Assembly (NCBI RefSeq): GCF_000253055.1
Contig: NC_016070.1
Coordinates: forward strand, 450,001 to 482,000
Length of the DNA: 32,000 nucleotides
Origin: Thermoproteus tenax Kra 1
Lineage (GTDB): Archaea > Thermoproteota > Thermoprotei > Thermoproteales > Thermoproteaceae
Direction of reading: 5' to 3'
The notes under the pieces were generated by a model. That model ran no database searches. It had not been told where the DNA came from and was given only the letters and a program-made list of their open reading frames with translations. The translations under genes were made by a program, and so were the position numbers. Shown here piece after piece: positions 2,566 to 12,440 of this stretch (positions are counted from its first letter, which is position 1; the number at the start of each line of letters is the position of its first letter).

Positions 2566-4020
2566 TCAGCTGTACGGCCTCGTCCCCCTCCAGAACTCCT
2601 CCTCTACCTCGGGCGGGAGGTCGTACTCGACGGGATCCCTCACTCCGTTTATCTTGAAGGCCCACCGGCGCATGTAGCAGGGCCCGCATCTGCCGCAGTG
2701 CTTAGGTCCCTTATCGTAGCAACTCCAAGTGAGGTGCAACGGAGCCTTGACCTCGAGCCCTAACTTCACTATCTCGTGTTTGACCAAACCGCCGACAGGC
2801 ATAAGTATCTGAACTCTCCTCTGGGGGCCCGTGGCGTATGGCAGCGCCTTGTTCAAAAGTCTCACGAACTCCATCTCGTTGTCGGGATAGGCGCCTGCCT
2901 CCTCCATATTTATGCCCAAGGCTACGTAGTCGTAGCCCCAAGCCTCGGCGAGTGCCACCGCCAGGGCTATGAAGACGAAGTTCCTCGCGGGCACCCACTC
3001 GTGGGCGAACTCTGCCCCCTCTCTGCCTGCATCTACTCTGTTTATCTCGCCTTGGCCCAGAAGGGGGGATCCGCCGGCCAGCTTGAAGAAGTCCATGTCT
3101 ATCTCTATAAGAGGGACGCCCAAGGCCTTGGAGATCTCCCTCACGGCCCTATCCTCGGGCCCCTCGGCGACATGTCTGTAGTTGAAGTGGAGGAGCGCCA
3201 CCTCATATCCCTGCCTTAAAAGCGCCGTCGCGGCGGTGGTTGAGTCGAGCCCGCCGCTGGCGACCACCAGGACCCTCCTTCCGCCGCTCTTCCTCCAGAG
3301 ACTAACGGTCCGCCACGTCCTATCCACGTCGATCTCGACCGCCGTGTAGGGCTCAAGCCTTTTGACGTAGTTGCCCTCCCACGGCGCGACGTCGCTCTGC
3401 AGATAGTCGTCGGAGCTGGCGAAAAACAGTGCATTCAACTCTTTGTCCCACATATAGTAGAGGGGCTTGAAATTAGCGGCCAGCCAGAGCTTCCCCGGCC
3501 TCGAGGAGTCCAAGATGGCTAGGGCGTAGCTGCCCACTACGACGTCTCTGAGTATCCTCGCGAGGTCCTCCAAAGTGCCGTCCCACAACGTCTCGAGCAG
3601 GGGAGGCAAAATGGCGGTGTCTATCCTCGACCTCCTTCTGAGGCCGTATTTCCTCTCCAGCTCTCCGTCGTTTGCTATCGTGCCGTTGTGGGTCACAGCT
3701 ATCCTCTCCCCGACCATGGGCTGTATATCCTCCTGGCTCTTCTCGGCCACGTGCTCCGTCGTGGGCTCGGCTCTGTCGTTGAAGATGGCCGCCACAGTGT
3801 CGGCAGTTATCATCCTCGGCATATCTCTAAGCGCCTCTGACGCCGATCTTCTGTCCTTATAGGCTCTGAATCTGCCGCCTCTGTCCAGAGCCACAAGCCC
3901 GAAGCTGTCCCTCCCCCTCTCCGAGGCGGCGACTGCTATGGACTTAAGCTTGTCCTCTATTGCGCGGGCCCTCTCGTCGTCCAGATCGCCGAAGATGAGG
4001 ACGCCGCCTATCGAGCACAC
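2566..4020 (-). CDS. GAT-QueC fusion: class-II glutamine amidotransferase domain plus QueC-like PP-loop ATPase, a candidate archaeosine-pathway amidotransferase
   Basis: 484 aa. The N-terminus MCSIGG carries the Cys2 nucleophile of Ntn/class-II amidotransferases. The C-terminal half has VLVVASGGLDSTTAA (SGGxDS PP-loop) and the QueC-type Cys cluster CYDKGPKHCGRCGPCYMRRWAF. GTG start at 4020, with the TATA element GTTTTTAAAG about 25 nt upstream. Confidence 0.85.
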   Translation of the reverse strand: MCSIGGVLIFGDLDDERARAIEDKLKSIAVAASERGRDSFGLVALDRGGRFRAYKDRRSASEALRDMPRMITADTVAAIFNDRAEPTTEHVAEKSQEDIQPMVGERIAVTHNGTIANDGELERKYGLRRRSRIDTAILPPLLETLWDGTLEDLARILRDVVVGSYALAILDSSRPGKLWLAANFKPLYYMWDKELNALFFASSDDYLQSDVAPWEGNYVKRLEPYTAVEIDVDRTWRTVSLWRKSGGRRVLVVASGGLDSTTAATALLRQGYEVALLHFNYRHVAEGPEDRAVREISKALGVPLIEIDMDFFKLAGGSPLLGQGEINRVDAGREGAEFAHEWVPARNFVFIALAVALAEAWGYDYVALGINMEEAGAYPDNEMEFVRLLNKALPYATGPQRRVQILMPVGGLVKHEIVKLGLEVKAPLHLTWSCYDKGPKHCGRCGPCYMRRWAFKINGVRDPVEYDLPPEVEEEFWRGTRPYS

Positions 4021-5867: not shown

Positions 5868-6594
5868 GTATGGCCTCCTTCCCCGTGAGCAGCTTGTTGA
5901 CCCTTCCTCTGTCCACCTTGTAGACGTTAACTGCCACTTCTTTTATCAGCTTGTCCGAGGGCTTGCACCTCTGATATCCCATCTGGAGGCACAGAGTGTA
6001 CTTGTATATCTTCAAATCGTTGGGCCCTCTTATGACGTCGGTGGCGATCAGCTCGGCTATCTTGTACGCAGTATAGAATGCGGCGTAGCGGAGGAACTTC
6101 TCGGACATATCGGAGTACACCGACTCGGCCGTTCTGAGGGACTTGATAAAGAGGGGCTCGTCGAAGAGGCCCAGCACAGTCCCCGTGAAGACGTACCTCA
6201 ACGCTCTAAACACCTTGTCCTCTACGTTCTTCCCCTTTATGTCCGCCACAACCGCCTTTATCTTGTTCTTGGTCTCCTCTGTGAGAACCTCAGTTATGTT
6301 CTTCACTATCTGCAAGAACTCGTGCGCTTTGTTCTCTATATAGAAGATGTCGTCTAAATCGCCGGGAGATATGGCGCCGGCGCCGTAGACCCCCACGAGG
6401 TGCACTGTGGCGAGCTCCTTGTCGTAGATGGACTCAGTTGACAGCCCCCTCAACGGCTCCACGCTCCTCCTTGCGTAGGCCTCCTTGAGCGCCTCTACGG
6501 CGGAGAGCCTGTTGGAAACTTCGCCCTTCAGCGCCTTCTCCAGAACCTCCAGAGCGGCCTCAACTCTGTTACGATGAAGGCGTTTTATCTCCAT
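5854..6594 (-). CDS. Hypothetical alpha-helical protein, possibly a conserved archaeal protein of unknown function
   Basis: 246-aa ORF with no competing ORF. It is Lys/Glu/Ile-rich and visibly less GC-rich than its neighbours. Its start overlaps the rpl10e 3' end by 26 nt on the same strand. Its 3' end overlaps the convergent hydrolase gene by 14 nt. Confidence 0.6.
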   Translation of the reverse strand: MEIKRLHRNRVEAALEVLEKALKGEVSNRLSAVEALKEAYARRSVEPLRGLSTESIYDKELATVHLVGVYGAGAISPGDLDDIFYIENKAHEFLQIVKNITEVLTEETKNKIKAVVADIKGKNVEDKVFRALRYVFTGTVLGLFDEPLFIKSLRTAESVYSDMSEKFLRYAAFYTAYKIAELIATDVIRGPNDLKIYKYTLCLQMGYQRCKPSDKLIKEVAVNVYKVDRGRVNKLLTGKEAIPKVS

Positions 6595-7108
6595 CCTTCG
6601 GCCTCACAATTATTCTTGTCGGTAGCGGCAGTTTGGAGGCCGCTCTCCTCAACGCCTCCTTTATGTGCGGCAGATGCTCCGGCTTAAACTCAAGATACAT
6701 TAGGGTCTGCCCAGCCTCAACTCTGGCGGCTCGGCCGGCGGGGGAGCCGAAGTTCAGCCTCATGCCCTCCTGCAGACGGTCGGCGCCGGCCATAGCCAAC
6801 ATCTTGTTCTCCCTTATGACGTGGTGGGGGTACACCTCCAGCCTGAAGTAGTAGTTTGCGTCTGTAATAGTAGTGGAGAGGTATTTGTAGGCCATCTGGC
6901 GCGCTGCCTCGAGGGCCTGCGCCCTGATCTGGCCCCTCGCCTCCACGATGAGCCTCGCGGTCATAGTGAAGGCTTGTCGGCCAGCTTGCGATGTGTTCCC
7001 CATGTCGAACTTAGGTATCTGGACATATGGGGCTCCGTGGATGTACTTGAGACGCGTGTAGGGAGGCCCCTTTATCCTCCTATAACACCTAGCAGGTCTG
7101 ACGGGCAT
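6569..7108 (-). CDS. rpl10e: 50S ribosomal protein L10e (uL16)
   Basis: MPVRPARCYRRIKGPPYTRLKYIHGAP... is the canonical L10e N-terminus. 179 aa. Confidence 0.95.
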   Translation of the reverse strand: MPVRPARCYRRIKGPPYTRLKYIHGAPYVQIPKFDMGNTSQAGRQAFTMTARLIVEARGQIRAQALEAARQMAYKYLSTTITDANYYFRLEVYPHHVIRENKMLAMAGADRLQEGMRLNFGSPAGRAARVEAGQTLMYLEFKPEHLPHIKEALRRAASKLPLPTRIIVRPKDGDKTPSS

Positions 7109-7125
7109 GGCCTAGAGAGGTGCCG

Positions 7126-7134
7126 TATTTAAAT
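7126..7134. promoter_or_regulatory. TATA box TATTTAAAT upstream of rpl10e; it could also drive a plus-strand RNA
   Basis: This near-palindromic TATA lies 17-26 nt upstream of the rpl10e ATG (7108). It is also about 25-30 nt upstream of the start of the GC-rich element on the plus strand. Confidence 0.6.
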
Positions 7135-7135
7135 C

Positions 7136-7313
7136 TGTTGCGGAGTCTAGCGCCCCCTTAGCGGCGCCCGGCCCTCTCCGGGGGCTCCGAGCCCGCCCCG
7201 GAGTCGCGCGAGGCAACCCCAGGGCGAGGGGGGCCGGCCGTGCCCCGGCGCACGGGCGCGGCTAATCGGCCGCGTCCCTAGAGCCGGGGATGCGGCTCAT
7301 AGTTGAAGGAGAT
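7136..7313. ncRNA. Candidate structured RNA; strand and identity unresolved (TnpB omega-RNA/right-end relic on the minus strand, or a minimal RNase P-like RNA on the plus strand)
   Basis: No ORF of 60 aa or more, and GC content far above the flanking genes. Hand-paired stems are 7176-7183/7196-7203, 7212-7220/7228-7235, 7238-7243/7250-7255 and 7254-7262/7269-7277. These are enclosed by 7167-7172/7283-7288. Details are in the findings. Confidence 0.55.
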
Positions 7314-7949
7314 TTACGAGGTTAAAAGTGTGATGGCCACCAACGAGGAAAAAGCGGGTTGTTTCCGGAGGATCTCCCAGTACCTCCTCTTTGCCCACAA
7401 CAACGGTATGTTGTCTCTGTGGTCTGAGAAGCCGCAGGCGGGACAACGCATTATGCGCTTCTCCTCCTCCATCTTAGCTCCACAACGGGGGCAGATGGCC
7501 GAATACAACCGTACCTCTCTGTATTGTAGCCCATACCACTTGGCGAGCTTCTTCAACCCCTTCCTCAGCTGTCCGAGGCCGTCGTAGAGGTGCTTCTTCA
7601 CGCCGCCTTCGCCGCTCTGCTTCCTCGCAATATACGTCTTGCCATCCATCACGTCTATCACAATGGCGGCGTTGTTCTGTCCGGCGAGCTCGATTATCTC
7701 CTCTGCGACCCGCGCTACGACGTCGCGGATCCTCCTAAACCGCCTGGACTTAAGGCGACGGGCTCTCTCCTCAAGGAGCATCCTTCTGGCGGGATCCGCC
7801 TCCCTTGCGGCCCGCCTTTCAAGGTCGCTTATCCTCTCGTGGAGCCTCCTCACAGAGGGAAAAACGGTTTTTCCCTCCGCCTCTTCCTCCGTATGGACAG
7901 AGGCGCGCTCCCTCCGCCGGCGCTCCTCCTCTCCTACTTGGACGAGCAC
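7314..7949 (-). CDS. TnpB/OrfB-like (IS200/IS605 family) C-terminal fragment: helical linker, RuvC-II/III remnants and zinc ribbon. It is either a 5'-truncated relic or a mini-TnpB
   Basis: RRFRRIRDVVARVAEEIIELAGQNNAAIVIDVMDG...LKKLAKWYGLQYREVRLYSAICPRCG...RCPACGFSDHRDNIP matches the TnpB C-terminal layout. The N-terminal WED/REC lobes and the RuvC-I segment are absent. The GTG start lies 20 nt after the nac stop. Confidence 0.7.
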   Translation of the reverse strand: MLVQVGEEERRRRERASVHTEEEAEGKTVFPSVRRLHERISDLERRAAREADPARRMLLEERARRLKSRRFRRIRDVVARVAEEIIELAGQNNAAIVIDVMDGKTYIARKQSGEGGVKKHLYDGLGQLRKGLKKLAKWYGLQYREVRLYSAICPRCGAKMEEEKRIMRCPACGFSDHRDNIPLLWAKRRYWEILRKQPAFSSLVAITLLTS

Positions 7950-7968
7950 ACGAAGGCGCTCGTTATGG

Positions 7969-8358
7969 CTAAGTTGAAGTAGCTTGCTTCTTTTTGTTCA
8001 TCAACGCCATAACTGCCTGCACCAGATCGCCCTTCGCTTCCACAAGCGCGCGCTCTGCCTCCTCCCTAGTGGCGCCAGTCTGCTCCATGACCAAGGCTAT
8101 GTCTTCATCGCTCGGGGCATATTGGCTCTGTTGCGTCTGCGGCTGTCTCTTCTGGAGCCTCACGGAGGCCTCTTGAGTTTGAACTTGATATATGAGGGTC
8201 TTGTTGGGCATCTTTATCAAAGCGACCGCCGGCGCCTCTATTCTGAGCACGTCGCCGCTCTTGAGCCCTATCTCCACATAGGCGGCATCCACCTCCTCCA
8301 TCTTTATGCCCATCCTCTTGAGGTATCTCTCTATCTCCCTAGGATTTAGGGAGAACAT
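7969..8358 (-). CDS. nac: Nascent polypeptide-associated complex protein (archaeal NAC)
   Basis: 129 aa. The NAC domain reads MGIKMEEVDAAYVEIGLKSGDVLRIEAPAV, and the C-terminal UBA-like helix bundle reads EDIALVMEQTGATREEAERALVEAKGDLVQAV. Its ATG shares one base with the alaS TGA. Confidence 0.9.
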   Translation of the reverse strand: MFSLNPREIERYLKRMGIKMEEVDAAYVEIGLKSGDVLRIEAPAVALIKMPNKTLIYQVQTQEASVRLQKRQPQTQQSQYAPSDEDIALVMEQTGATREEAERALVEAKGDLVQAVMALMNKKKQATST

Positions 8359-11039
8359 CAGCTCAATGCCTCGCGGAGAGCTTTTAATATATCCGCAGCC
8401 GTGCCCTCGAAGACGCCGCCCGCGTAGGTCTTGGAGCCGCCTCCTCTGAAGCCGCGTTTGCGCAACTCGGCGGCGATCGGGCCCAGGTCCACTTGGGAGC
8501 CGCTGTACAGCTCCAGCTTCCTCCCGGAGCGCACGGCCAATATGAGCCTCGGGTTCTGTTCAGTGGCGATAGCCGCTATGGATCTGGCCAGATCGGCGTC
8601 GTCAAGCTCCAACACAGCCAGATCGGCCTTCGGCAGACTCTCTGCCTTCAACGACTTTGCCTGGAGCGTGGCGTATTCGGCCAAAAGCCTCTTGTACTTC
8701 CTCTCTATCTCCGCCCATTTCTCCAGGGCCTTGCCCAGCTGTTGCGCTACGTCGTCTCTGCCGACTCCGAGCGCCTTGGCCGTCGAGGCTAAGTCGCCCT
8801 CGATCCTCTGCACGTACTCCACAGCGTGTCTGCCCGTCGTGAAGATGAACCTCACTACGCCGTCGGCTATACGCTCCACACGCACTATCTTTATGAGGCC
8901 TATCTGGCCTGTGCTCGACAGATGGGTGCCCCCGCACGCCTGTACGTCGTACGGGTCGTCCTCAGGGCCTATCCTCAAGATCCTTATCTCTCTGGCGGGG
9001 ACCACGCCGCCTTGATAGATTATGAAGCCGAACTTTGATTCAGCCTCGTTCCTGGGCATCACGATGGGCCTCACGGGGAGATCCCTCATGACTATCTCGT
9101 TGGCCAACCGCTCTATCTTGGCCACCTCCTCCTCGGTGGGCATCTTGTAGTGTGTGACGTCCAACCTACTGAAGGGTATGTCCTTCTGGGCGCCGGCCTG
9201 CCATATGTGGGGGCCCAACACCCTCCTTATGCTCTGTATAAGCACGTGAGTGCCGGTGTGCATCCTCATCAGCGAGATTCGGCGGTCCCAGTCTATCTCG
9301 CCGTAGACCTCCTCTCCCTCCTTGGGAGGAGGTCCCTCTATCACGTGCACTATAACGCCGCCGAGCCTCTGGACGTCGACGACCTTCGCCTCTCCGCCGC
9401 TGTGCTTTATGACTCCTCTGTCCGCGGGCTGGCCGCCTCCCTCTGGATAAAAGACCGTCGCATCTAGGACTACGTATTTGCCGTCTATGACCCTCAAGAC
9501 CTTAGAGGTTGCAGACCTCCTGTACGGATCCTCGTAGAAGAGCTCGCGCGTCTTGGGCAGATCGGCCACCTTGGACAACCCGAGGGGCAGTTTGCCCGCC
9601 GCTTCCTGCTCCGCCCTCCTCGCCTGATGCCTGGCCGCCAGGCGGGAGTAGAAATCGTCGGGAACCTCGGCCTCTGCGCCTAACTTTCTGGCAACCTCCT
9701 GGGCCACCTCTGGCGGTATCCCGTAGCTGTCGTAGAGTTCCACCAGCTGTTCCGCCTTGAGGGACTTGCCGCCGGCCTTCTCCAGAGCCCTTCGGACCGC
9801 GGCGGGCGCCGACTTTATGACGTCCTTGTACTTCTTCTCCTCGAGGTCTATAAGCTCCAGAATTATATCGCGCGACTGCCAGACCTCGGGGTAGTCGTCC
9901 CTCAAGAAGCCCAGATGTAGGTCGAAGAGGTCCACCAGCGATGTCTCAATGCCGGCTATCCACAGGCTCTTGAGGGCTCTTCTGATGAGGAGCCTCGCGA
10001 GATATCCAGCGCCGGTGTTAGACGGTATAACTCCATCCGCTATCATCCAAGAGACCGTTCTGCTGTGATCCGCCAACACGTACAACGCCTCCTGTGGCCT
10101 CATGATCTCGCGGAACTCTCGGGGGTCTATGCCTATTTTCTCGGCCACAAGGTCGTAGGCTTTGGCGAGGCCGATCACCTCGGGGTCCATCTGGCCGAAG
10201 TACACAGAGGCCTTGCCCAATATGTGGGCCGGGGGCTCGGGCACGCCCAACTTCTTGCGGGCCGCCGAGAGGAACGGGCCGAAGACTGCGTCGTATACAG
10301 TGGGGGAGCCCTTGGCCATCCAGTATATCCTTTCCAGGCCGTAGCCTGTGTCCACGATCTTCAGAGGGAGCTCCACGTATTTCCCGTCCTTTACTTCGTA
10401 GTGCATAAACACCAGAGTGGCCACCTCGAGGCCTCTCACCAACACCTCGAAGCTCTCGCCGGCGTTTCCGCCGCCCTCCCACACAGACTCTTTGAAGGTT
10501 ATCTCGTCCTCGGGAATGCCCAGCTCCTTCGTGAAGAACTCGTAGGCGTACTCCGTGGTCTCGCTTATCCAGTATATATGCTTATCTGGATAGTTGAAAG
10601 CGTGGTGGGCCATCATCTCGAAGCCCGTGAGGTGTCTGCCGCTCCGCCCCACTTTGTCCACATCGGTGAGCCTAATCGACGGCTGAGATATTGTCAATGG
10701 GTTGGCCGGCGGAGGCACGGCGCCGCTCGTGACCCATGGTTGAAAGTCGTAGATAGACGCGCCCACAAGGAAGACGTCCTCGCGCCATCTGGCCACCACG
10801 GGGTACCTCTTGATCCTCGCGTGGCCCCTCTTCTCGAAGAAGGACAGAAACCTCTCCCTCAGATCTCTGATGCTTTCAACAGGCACTCTGACCGGCGAAT
10901 TGCCGATAAAGCCGTATGGAACGCACGGCTGATCGCCGCAGTAGACTTGGTCTTGCCGCAGAGTCCAGAAGTACGATTTGCACATAGGGCACTGTTTCCT
11001 GTGGAAGCCCGCCGTCTCGAATAATTTAGTCGAAAGCAC
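8358..11039 (-). CDS. alaS: Alanine--tRNA ligase (AlaRS)
   Basis: Homology starts at [22 protein letters not shown]. The editing-domain motifs MHTGTHVL and CGGTH are present. The longest ORF reaches 11219. I prefer the in-frame GTG at 11039 (893 aa), which has the TATA-like CTTAATAAATG (11064-11054) 15-25 nt upstream. Confidence 0.95.
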
Positions 11040-11145: not shown

Positions 11146-11465
11146 TTCGCGTCGCAGGCCTCCCGGGAGAGGCCTCCGGCCGCCGGGGCGGCCCAGAGCG
11201 GATAGCGGCTTATTTCCATCAGTTTTAAGAGCTTAAAAGCTCTATGCGGAGTCCCCAGGGGCGGCGCGGCCGACGCTTCGCATGCAGTTTAATGGGGGTT
11301 TCCCAGTACTCCAACGGGCTATGGAGGCTCGACCTTCTGGCGTGCCCTCTTGTCGGCAGATGCCCTCCTCTAGGCCGTGGAGAGAGCTTATTAGCCCCGC
11401 CCTCGTTGTAGCGGACCGCCTCGCGGAGCTGAGTTTAATGCATCATTTCGCTGTAGCCAGGCGCC

Positions 11466-12440
11466 TTAGGGAGGGCTCGGCTGGGCTATATACGGCACCG
11501 ATGTGCAGGGGATGTCTAAGTTGGGGCAGGCGCCTATGGAGTAGAGCCTCTGAGGCTTCACAAGCTCCAAGAAGAGGCGCAGAGGCCGCTCTGGGTCTAA
11601 CAAGGGCGCCTTAGCCACGGCGCCTGCCGCATATCTATGCCCTCCTCCGCCCATTGCGACCGCCACCTTGGTGCAGTCGTAGCCCGAGCCCCTCTCTGCG
11701 CCGCAATAGAGTCTGTAGGTCCTTCTGCTGAGTCTCACTAGGATGTTCACATATATCGCGCCCTTTTTCTGGAGGGCTATGGCTAAGGATCTGTAGGATA
11801 TGGGGAGCTTGACCGGGCTGTATACGGCGAGGGAGCTCTCCGCCGGTATCAGCTCGGCCAGTTTGGCCACCAAGGAGCTCAGCTGGCGCCCTCGCTCCAC
11901 CAGAGGCCTCACGGCCGCATCCTTCAGACAGGCGAGCCCCCTTTCTGCCAGAGCTCTTATCAAAGCCAACTTTTCGTTGTATCTGGCGTAGCGGACTGCG
12001 GCGTCCAGATCCCTCACTGCATCGTCCCTTATATCCGCCGTGTCTGTCTGGCGGGCCGCCTCAGCTATCTGCTCCGCTATGGGGTCGCCTGATAGTCCCA
12101 AAGCCTTGAGCGCCAGAACTGCCGAAGCGGGCGCGTCGGGATCGTAATATTCCCTCTCGGCGCACGGCCTGTTGGTGGCGTGATGGTCGGCTCTGAGCTT
12201 GGCCTTGCCTGGACACGGCAGATCCGCCACGAAGTCCCACTTGAACCACTTGAGCCACCTCCCCCTCTGGACATCCGTCGGATAGGCCAACACGACCACC
12301 CCGTTGGGGAACCTTCTGAGGAAGAGCGCGGCGGAGCCTATGCCGTCTACGTCGTTGGCGTCACAGAGGGCGAGCGGGCTTCCCATGGCCTTTGCCTTAA
12401 GTGCGTCGAGAAACCTCACGGGACGGAGGCCGTGTTTCAT
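11466..12440 (-). CDS. DHH/DHHA1-family phosphoesterase (RecJ/NrnA-like)
   Basis: Motifs are DANDVDGIGSAAL (DxD..DG), LRADHHATN (DHH) and AMGGGGHRYAAGA (DHHA1 GGGH). The start may be GTG 12419 rather than ATG 12440, because the TATA block at 12441-12451 abuts ATG 12440. Confidence 0.8.
   Translation of the reverse strand: MKHGLRPVRFLDALKAKAMGSPLALCDANDVDGIGSAALFLRRFPNGVVVLAYPTDVQRGRWLKWFKWDFVADLPCPGKAKLRADHHATNRPCAEREYYDPDAPASAVLALKALGLSGDPIAEQIAEAARQTDTADIRDDAVRDLDAAVRYARYNEKLALIRALAERGLACLKDAAVRPLVERGRQLSSLVAKLAELIPAESSLAVYSPVKLPISYRSLAIALQKKGAIYVNILVRLSRRTYRLYCGAERGSGYDCTKVAVAMGGGGHRYAAGAVAKAPLLDPERPLRLFLELVKPQRLYSIGACPNLDIPCTSVPYIAQPSPP

Follow-up and report, generated by a model that had tools for sequence, protein, structure and literature searches.

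A short GC-rich segment (positions 7136-7313) was analyzed in a window of 32,000 nucleotides of Thermoproteus tenax Kra 1, the window being the whole stretch of contig NC_016070.1 given above. The segment lies between rpl10e, the gene for ribosomal protein L10e/L16, and a minus-strand open reading frame (ORF) of 211 amino acids related to the nuclease TnpB; the next gene beyond this ORF is nac, which encodes the nascent polypeptide-associated complex. The segment very probably is the right-end module of an IS200/IS605-type, tnpB-only (IS1341-like) element of Thermoproteaceae, encoding on the minus strand the scaffold of an omega guide RNA. The features of the region are collected in Table 1.

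Table 1. Features around the GC-rich segment, in window coordinates.
Feature	Position	Strand	Evidence
Scaffold resembling an omega RNA, about 150 nt, with H1, H2 and its inner hairpin, M and the pseudoknot helix T	7152-7300	minus	Covariance model R1 match 7140-7303, 122 bits; covariation; RNAalifold
H1 5′ arm, CCCGGCUCU	7280-7288	minus	Pairs with 7167-7175; 9 of 9 pairs canonical
H1 3′ arm, AGGGCCGGG	7167-7175	minus	Pairs with 7280-7288; compensatory changes
H2 5′ arm, GGGACGCGGCCG	7267-7278	minus	H2 in 9 of 9 copies, with differing sequences
H2 3′ arm, CGGCCGGCCC	7231-7240	minus	Pairs with 7267-7278; small inner hairpin enclosed
M stem-loop, CUCGCCCUGGGGUUGC / GCGACUCCGGGGCGGG	7192-7228 (7228-7213 with 7207-7192)	minus	16 bp, 4 of them G-U
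T helix 5′ arm, GCCCCC, pseudoknot with H1	7180-7185	minus	Pairs with 7152-7157
T helix 3′ arm, GGGGGC, last conserved bases	7152-7157	minus	Similarity of copies ends 0-2 nt beyond
CAUGA-type motif just past the stop codon, candidate RNA 5′ end	7297-7301	minus	YAUGR in 9 of 9 copies
TTTTAA, TATA-like and conserved, within the final tnpB codons; candidate internal promoter	7322-7327	minus	24-27 nt upstream of YAUGR in 8 of 9 copies
Flank readable as a guide (CUAGACUCCGCAACAGAUUU), host spacer overlapping the rpl10e TATA box	7131-7150	minus	Lies 3′ of the scaffold, as the guides of omega RNAs do; unlike other copies
211-aa ORF; residues 29-211 (window 7314-7865) are the TnpB C-terminal part, RuvC-II/III and zinc ribbon	7314-7949	minus	Pfam PF07282, E 3.8e-9
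Left 120 nt of the insertion, unlike the family left end or tnpB; holds the palindrome 7855-7877	7849-7968	minus	DNA homology to L061 ends at 7848
Insertion relative to relatives, about 830 nt; 5′-truncated TnpB-type insertion sequence remnant between nac and rpl10e	7138-7968	minus	nac-rpl10e gap of 30-50 nt in L001, L014 and L006; blastn
rpl10e (ribosomal protein L10e/L16), downstream neighbour	6569-7108	minus	Pfam PF00252, E 1.2e-30
rpl10e TATA box (ATTTAAATA on the minus strand)	7126-7134	minus	Same distance from the rpl10e ATG in L001, L003, L004, L006 and L014, all without the element
nac (nascent polypeptide-associated complex, UBA domain), upstream neighbour	7969-8358	minus	Pfam UBA_HYPK; orthologues adjacent to rpl10e in relatives

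A GC-rich non-coding segment within an insertion

The base composition, coding content and folding of the segment were measured. The G+C content was 0.85 at 7150-7249 and 0.79 at 7200-7299, with flanks of 0.5-0.65 and surroundings of about 57% around 7150-7250, and 7150-7249 was the sole 100-nt stretch of the window with a G+C content of at least 0.80. No ORF of at least 40 amino acids was found inside 7136-7296, only ORF ends reaching its edges. The minus strand folded with -108.2 kcal/mol (z = -2.96), a value that none of 200 shuffles equalled, and the plus strand with -103.1 kcal/mol (z = -1.5), which is weaker against its own shuffles. The preliminary description of the segment as very GC-rich, hairpin-dense and non-coding was thus confirmed. 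A tRNA/tmRNA scan gave no match. Rfam 15 gave no match for the window at the gathering score and none in 7000-7450 at E <= 10, and two Pyrobaculum islandicum loci with homologous copies gave no relevant Rfam match at E <= 1. A repeat search within the window found no second copy of the element, and the covariance-model search described below also found it there as a single copy.

The synteny of the region was compared among 60 loci around rpl10e orthologues. In the Thermoproteus and Pyrobaculum relatives nac stands directly upstream of rpl10e. A blastn search with 6500-8400 matched only these two genes, in 15 relatives, and no counterpart of 7109-7968 was found in the nac-rpl10e loci of the relatives. 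Because nac and rpl10e are adjacent there, 7138-7968 is an insertion, and the site shows presence/absence polymorphism (the two genes adjoin in L001, L014, L006 and others). The alignment of syntenic spacers, which had been suggested beforehand as a check, thereby showed the element to be absent from the spacer of relatives. The TATA box at 7126-7134 had been proposed as the promoter of a plus-strand RNA. The box itself is real; its conservation in the relatives that lack the element indicates that it serves rpl10e on the minus strand and not an RNA on the plus strand. The motif kept in these relatives reads AGATTTAAATA and stands about 20 nt upstream of the rpl10e ATG.

The nac-rpl10e spacer was also found to vary in length. 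It measures 160-300 nt in other genomes (L003, L004, L007 and L009 are among the varying loci), and in Thermoproteus sp. UBA157 it spans about 1.37 kb (L002, 1635-3000) and holds an unrelated 328-aa ORF (1891-2877). The spacer seems prone to insertions.

The TnpB fragment and its homologous copies

The 211-aa ORF, called TnpB-like in the preliminary description, proved to be a C-terminal fragment of TnpB. The closest database protein, 99% identical, is from T. tenax. The Pfam match of the ORF is the Cas12f1-like/TnpB TNB domain, and it matched the NCBIfam profile guided_TnpB over positions 225-380 of 389. It is 76% identical to residues 232-418 of P0028, an intact 418-aa T. tenax paralogue, and 76% identical to residues 237-413 of P0017 of P. 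islandicum. Of a TnpB nuclease the insertion retains 187 C-terminal residues; the first 231, and with them the RuvC-I aspartate motif, are lost. For the family as a whole, guided_TnpB matched P0017 with E 2e-24, and a profile built from 27 members matched ISDra2 TnpB (8BF8/8H1J, E ~6e-4), Cas12g and a TnpB-like protein. Intact members were recovered by protein search from P. islandicum (about 25), Pyrobaculum neutrophilum (3) and T. tenax (2, P0015 and P0028), together with fragments. The family gave 39 matches in 5.8 billion proteins. Protein-guided scans of metagenome and viral contigs found no relatives, and a scan of metagenomes with a 16-nt DNA pattern returned 120 chance matches, none of them with TnpB similarity. 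This TnpB lineage appears restricted to Thermoproteaceae.

Three further observations concern the proteins. The N-terminal ~140 residues of the lineage (e.g., of P0017) match no TnpB profile, the NCBIfam match beginning at residue 142. One fragment of the family is labelled PaREP12 in its source database. A second T. tenax fragment, P0003 (183 aa, 65% identical), starts at nearly the same residue as the window fragment, P0001; the shared start may reflect chance in ORF calling or a common truncated ancestor.

Six tnpB loci were examined beyond the window, and eight homologous elements were found in P. islandicum and P. neutrophilum, so that nine copies from three genomes could be compared. All eight stand directly after tnpB, five of them after intact genes of 413-421 aa. 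This agrees with the earlier remark that the element starts at the stop codon of the TnpB ORF, and a search for copies after intact tnpB genes, of the kind also proposed then, gave these five in Pyrobaculum, with multiple copies in P. islandicum. Unlike the window copy, L062b and L063-L066 encode an intact TnpB in cis. The homology runs on from gene to element: in blastn the window aligned continuously from 7848 to 7168, from within tnpB into the element, with L061 3423-4117 at 68% identity. Against the closest copy, L066, identity was 77% in the ORF, 75.6% in the scaffold and 38.8% in the next 40 nt. Similarity among the copies is lost 0-2 nt past a conserved motif, A(A/U)AGGGG(G)NN. Because their similarity ends right after the 3′ arm of helix T, a right-end boundary is marked there, and on this comparison the transposon right end probably lies at about window 7150-7151.

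The left side of the element was also compared. The intact copies share a left-end palindrome (CTCACCTGCCTGAC...GTCAGGCAGGTGAG), and their upstream flanks are repeated or rearranged. Local alignment of window 7849-7968 to five left ends was no better than that of shuffled sequences. Since the left end and half of TnpB are missing, the window copy is not autonomous; judged from its sequence, it is a relic that lacks its left end and the first 231 TnpB residues. The term orphan, which had been applied to the segment, is apt in the one sense that the tnpB beside it is incomplete. At 7855-7877, in the part that matches neither tnpB nor the left end, stands a perfect palindrome of 10 bp (AGGGAAAAAC-CG-GTTTTTCCCT), which might be a terminator-like hairpin after nac.

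Several of the homologous loci are rearranged. In P. islandicum, L061 (2100-4170) holds a family copy that lies between rps3 and rpl22 in a cluster of ribosomal-protein genes. The tnpB of this copy is broken into two ORFs (2727-2984 and 3001-3981), and an inverted N-terminal tnpB fragment lies just upstream (2299-2129). The same head-to-head arrangement is found in L066, with an inverted tnpB fragment at 9564-9325. In L062 (P. islandicum, 3340-3545) one copy carries about 190 nt of interrupting sequence that separate its scaffold from the end of tnpB; they lie between direct repeats of ACAACCCG(T/C)TTTTCCAACCC and contain an antisense piece of a tnpB N-terminus (3477-3346). In L066 (11246-11430) a short-chain dehydrogenase gene (11246-12043, minus strand) runs antisense through the scaffold, its last ~60 codons being transposon sequence. 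The gene's own 3′ end was probably replaced when the element inserted.

Conserved fold of the scaffold

The helices were derived by hand from a comparison of single-sequence folds and were then tested with a covariance model. This model was built from five copies and contained H1, H2, the inner hairpin and M. It recovered the other four copies with E values of 3e-12 to 3e-8, all on the tnpB-sense strand, and searching 239 kb from Thermoproteaceae, which included the remainder of the window, gave no further match. The order and spacing of the helix arms are shared by all nine copies, and 45 of the 47 model pairs form in the window copy. In the nine-sequence alignment, to which T was added by hand as a pseudoknot, 91.0% of cells were paired, versus 53% when the partners were slid by one column, and both-side changes were seen in 25 of 48 pairs, versus 7 when slid. 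None of 500 shuffles reached the observed pairing and covariation values. RNAalifold on the model-fitted alignment independently recovered H1, H2 and M (37 pairs, 24 with compensatory changes). Little consensus structure emerged when RNAalifold was applied to the raw sequences aligned by MAFFT alone. Chance does not explain the element, as eight homologues carry the covarying helices.

Individual helices showed the same pattern. H1 has compensatory changes in L061, L064, L065 and L062b, reading CUUGGCCCC / GGGGCCAAG in L062b and CCCGGCCUC / GAGGCCGGG in L065. H2 in L065 reads GGAGUCCGG / CCGGGCUCC. Of the 16 pairs modelled for M (helices 5 and 6), 13 have both-side changes across the copies. 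T pairs in every copy and changes in a compensatory way to GCUCCCC / GGGGAGC in L061, GUCCCCC / GGGGGAU in L062b and GUCCCCC / GGGGGAC in L065b. T crosses H1 and forms a pseudoknot with it, and both helices show compensatory changes. Because T was absent from the covariance model, its pairing is not an artefact of model fitting.

The stems paired by hand in the preliminary description are all present in the sequence at the coordinates given there, and they fared differently in the comparison. The enclosing helix 7167-7172 / 7283-7288 corresponds to the conserved H1. The 9-bp hairpin 7254-7262 / 7269-7277 is plausible as a local alternative to H2, available to the H2 5′ arm in the window and in L066. 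The stem 7176-7183 / 7196-7203 is not kept in the homologues. Two other structural readings were tried and dropped. A pairing between GGGUUG of stem M and the conserved AAACAACCC of the ORF was rejected, as three copies without GGGUUG keep AAACAACCC, and a kink-turn reading of AUGA/CCGA motifs was rejected on topology.

The strand and the possible start of the RNA were considered from the same alignment. On the tnpB-sense strand 27 pairs are G-U, and 91.0% of pairs are standard in the sense direction versus 87.5% in the antisense direction. The minus strand is thus favoured by the G-U pairs, by the fold z-scores and by the fixed orientation to tnpB. The sequence between TTTTAA and YAUGR is variable among the copies. 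The spacing of the two motifs would fit an archaeal TATA box and start site, with processing of the tnpB mRNA as an alternative. A second AUGA stands immediately before the H2 3′ arm in four copies (L063, L065, L062b and L065b). No pairing accounts for either the YAUGR or the second AUGA motif.

Assignment to a probable omega RNA and alternative explanations

The assignment to an omega module is made by position, boundary and architecture. Of the two readings offered in the preliminary description, it takes up the first, a minus-strand omega or right-end RNA scaffold, which is supported by the contiguous TnpB fragment, the homologues after intact tnpB and the covarying tnpB-sense fold. In an intact copy, the RNA would start near the CAUGA motif just past the tnpB stop codon, and would be either transcribed from the TATA-like TTTTAA at the end of tnpB or processed out of the tnpB mRNA. 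It would fold with H1 enclosing H2 and stem-loop M, and an internal C-run would form the pseudoknot with the G-run at the extreme end of the element. The predicted transcript would run on into the flanking DNA, which would serve as the guide, and TnpB would bind the RNA and cut guide-matching DNA beside a target-adjacent motif.

The arrangement was compared with known systems. The ISDra2 omega RNA (Deinococcus radiodurans, IS200/IS605) has a 116-nt scaffold of four stems with a pseudoknot formed from nucleotides just 5′ of the guide, and its guide is the sequence past the transposon end (PMC10097598). As in ISDra2, the RNA of the present family would lie at the 3′ end of tnpB and share its strand, and the multi-stem scaffold is of similar size (about 140-150 nt). 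It also ends at the right end, where the flank would supply the guide, and its pseudoknot uses the nucleotides immediately 5′ of the putative guide. In contrast to ISDra2, the family is very high in G+C, shares no sequence similarity with it and has no Rfam match, and the window copy is without a functional TnpB. In haloarchaea, structured sense RNAs have been mapped at the 3′ end of IS1341-type tnpB genes, orphan intergenic copies included (PMC4615843). These sotRNAs of Halobacterium salinarum and other archaea resemble the present family in belonging to archaeal tnpB-only elements, in lying at the 3′ end and in having orphan copies. They differ in that they were mapped experimentally and share a right-end-like tetraloop hairpin, whereas the RNA of the present family is predicted, with a different and lineage-specific fold. 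Non-autonomous IS200/IS605 derivatives (PATE/MITE-like elements and orphan right ends) are also comparable, as a transposon end persists in them without a working nuclease or transposase gene. The window copy differs from these derivatives: half of its tnpB is preserved, a left end cannot be recognised, and it is a truncation rather than a mobilisable miniature.

Several points weigh against the omega-RNA assignment. The window encodes no functional TnpB in cis, and the protein family stays under the curated guided_TnpB cut-off of NCBIfam (86 bits versus 100). No TnpA gene, target-adjacent motif or left-end boundary is defined. The comparison comprises just nine copies, drawn from three genomes, and the pairs were counted on an alignment that had been fitted to the nested helices. 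The discrimination of strands by G-U pairs is by itself modest. A paper on small-RNA sequencing in Pyrobaculum does not mention transcripts of these loci, and the scaffold has no match to any curated Rfam family. Moreover, two features depart from ISDra2: the scaffold lies wholly after the stop codon, while that of ISDra2 overlaps the ORF, and the 5′ strand of the pseudoknot lies inside the H1 loop, ~25 nt upstream, while that of ISDra2 lies ~100 nt upstream in the loop of a 5′ stem.

These departures could be taken further. The family might have an omega RNA of unusual layout (all of it downstream of the stop codon, perhaps with its own TATA-like promoter, and with a pseudoknot to a C-run in a multi-helix loop), and the T. 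tenax orphan might be expressed, be loaded in trans by P0028 and have a regulatory or homing-related role at the ribosomal-protein promoter. This combined proposal seems unlikely. Action of the helices at the DNA level alone, as single-stranded right-end hairpins for a Y1 transposase with no functional RNA, is rather improbable. IS200/IS605 ends do bear subterminal hairpins for single-strand transposition (PMC4615843), and the antisense strand is nearly as well paired. Yet a structure of ~140 nt with four helices and a pseudoknot is far bigger than a right-end hairpin, G-U pairs outnumber the reverse case, no tnpA gene was seen in the six tnpB loci, and TnpB proteins need such an RNA (PMC10097598).

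An exapted orphan scaffold that an intact TnpB paralogue of T. tenax loads in trans, or that acts by read-through, and that influences the rpl10e promoter, is quite improbable. The scaffold is intact in its pairing, the genome encodes P0015 and P0028 (the latter being the closely matching paralogue above), the 7131-7150 flank overlaps the TATA box, and the element and rpl10e are co-directional. Every right-end flank, however, is a guide by construction, and the target-adjacent motif is not defined; the insertion is absent in relatives, and conservation therefore lends no support. The truncated ORF also lacks the RNA- and DNA-binding domains. The high G+C content and stable fold, which are typical of structural RNAs in hyperthermophiles, would suit an independent host non-coding RNA gene on either strand that lies beside the transposase fragment by chance. 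This explanation is highly improbable, because the DNA homology with the tnpB copies is continuous, all eight homologues directly follow tnpB, no copy occurs in syntenic or other regions of 18 related loci, and the whole block is an insertion.

The second reading of the preliminary description, a type T (S-domain-less) RNase P RNA on the plus strand with the TATA box at 7126-7134 as its promoter, can practically be dismissed: the segment is a small GC-rich structured RNA candidate in a Thermoproteaceae genome and an 8-bp P4-like pairing (7200-7209 with 7256-7263) can be drawn, but the proposed Rfam RNase P models found nothing in the searches above, the element is missing from the nac-rpl10e spacer of other Thermoproteus and Pyrobaculum genomes and is multi-copy beside tnpB in P. 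islandicum and P. neutrophilum rather than single-copy, the P4-like strands are unpaired in the homologues (they fall in stem-loop M and the interior of H2), and the promoter is that of rpl10e, kept also where the element is absent. For T. tenax, the type T RNase P RNA itself was identified by Chan et al., well above threshold and near the 124-167 bits of the training sequences (PMC3579882), so that this reading was refuted on the grounds that its own author had named.

The omega-RNA assignment places the element in a known kind, and Rfam does not contain this particular scaffold family; copies from P. islandicum likewise gave no match. No paper linking TnpB with Pyrobaculum or Thermoproteus RNAs was found in the literature. 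The analysis removes a false lead, as the segment is neither RNase P RNA nor a new housekeeping RNA, and shows that the nac-rpl10e spacer of T. tenax harbours a transposon relic. It also yields a covariation-defined guide-RNA scaffold for a TnpB lineage of hyperthermophilic archaea that has no Rfam family and about 25 intact copies in P. islandicum. With the covariance model, orphan right ends can be annotated in genomes of Thermoproteaceae, and the scaffold may be of practical use if thermostable TnpB editors of this clade are tested. Biologically, such a scaffold is an expected feature of TnpB elements.

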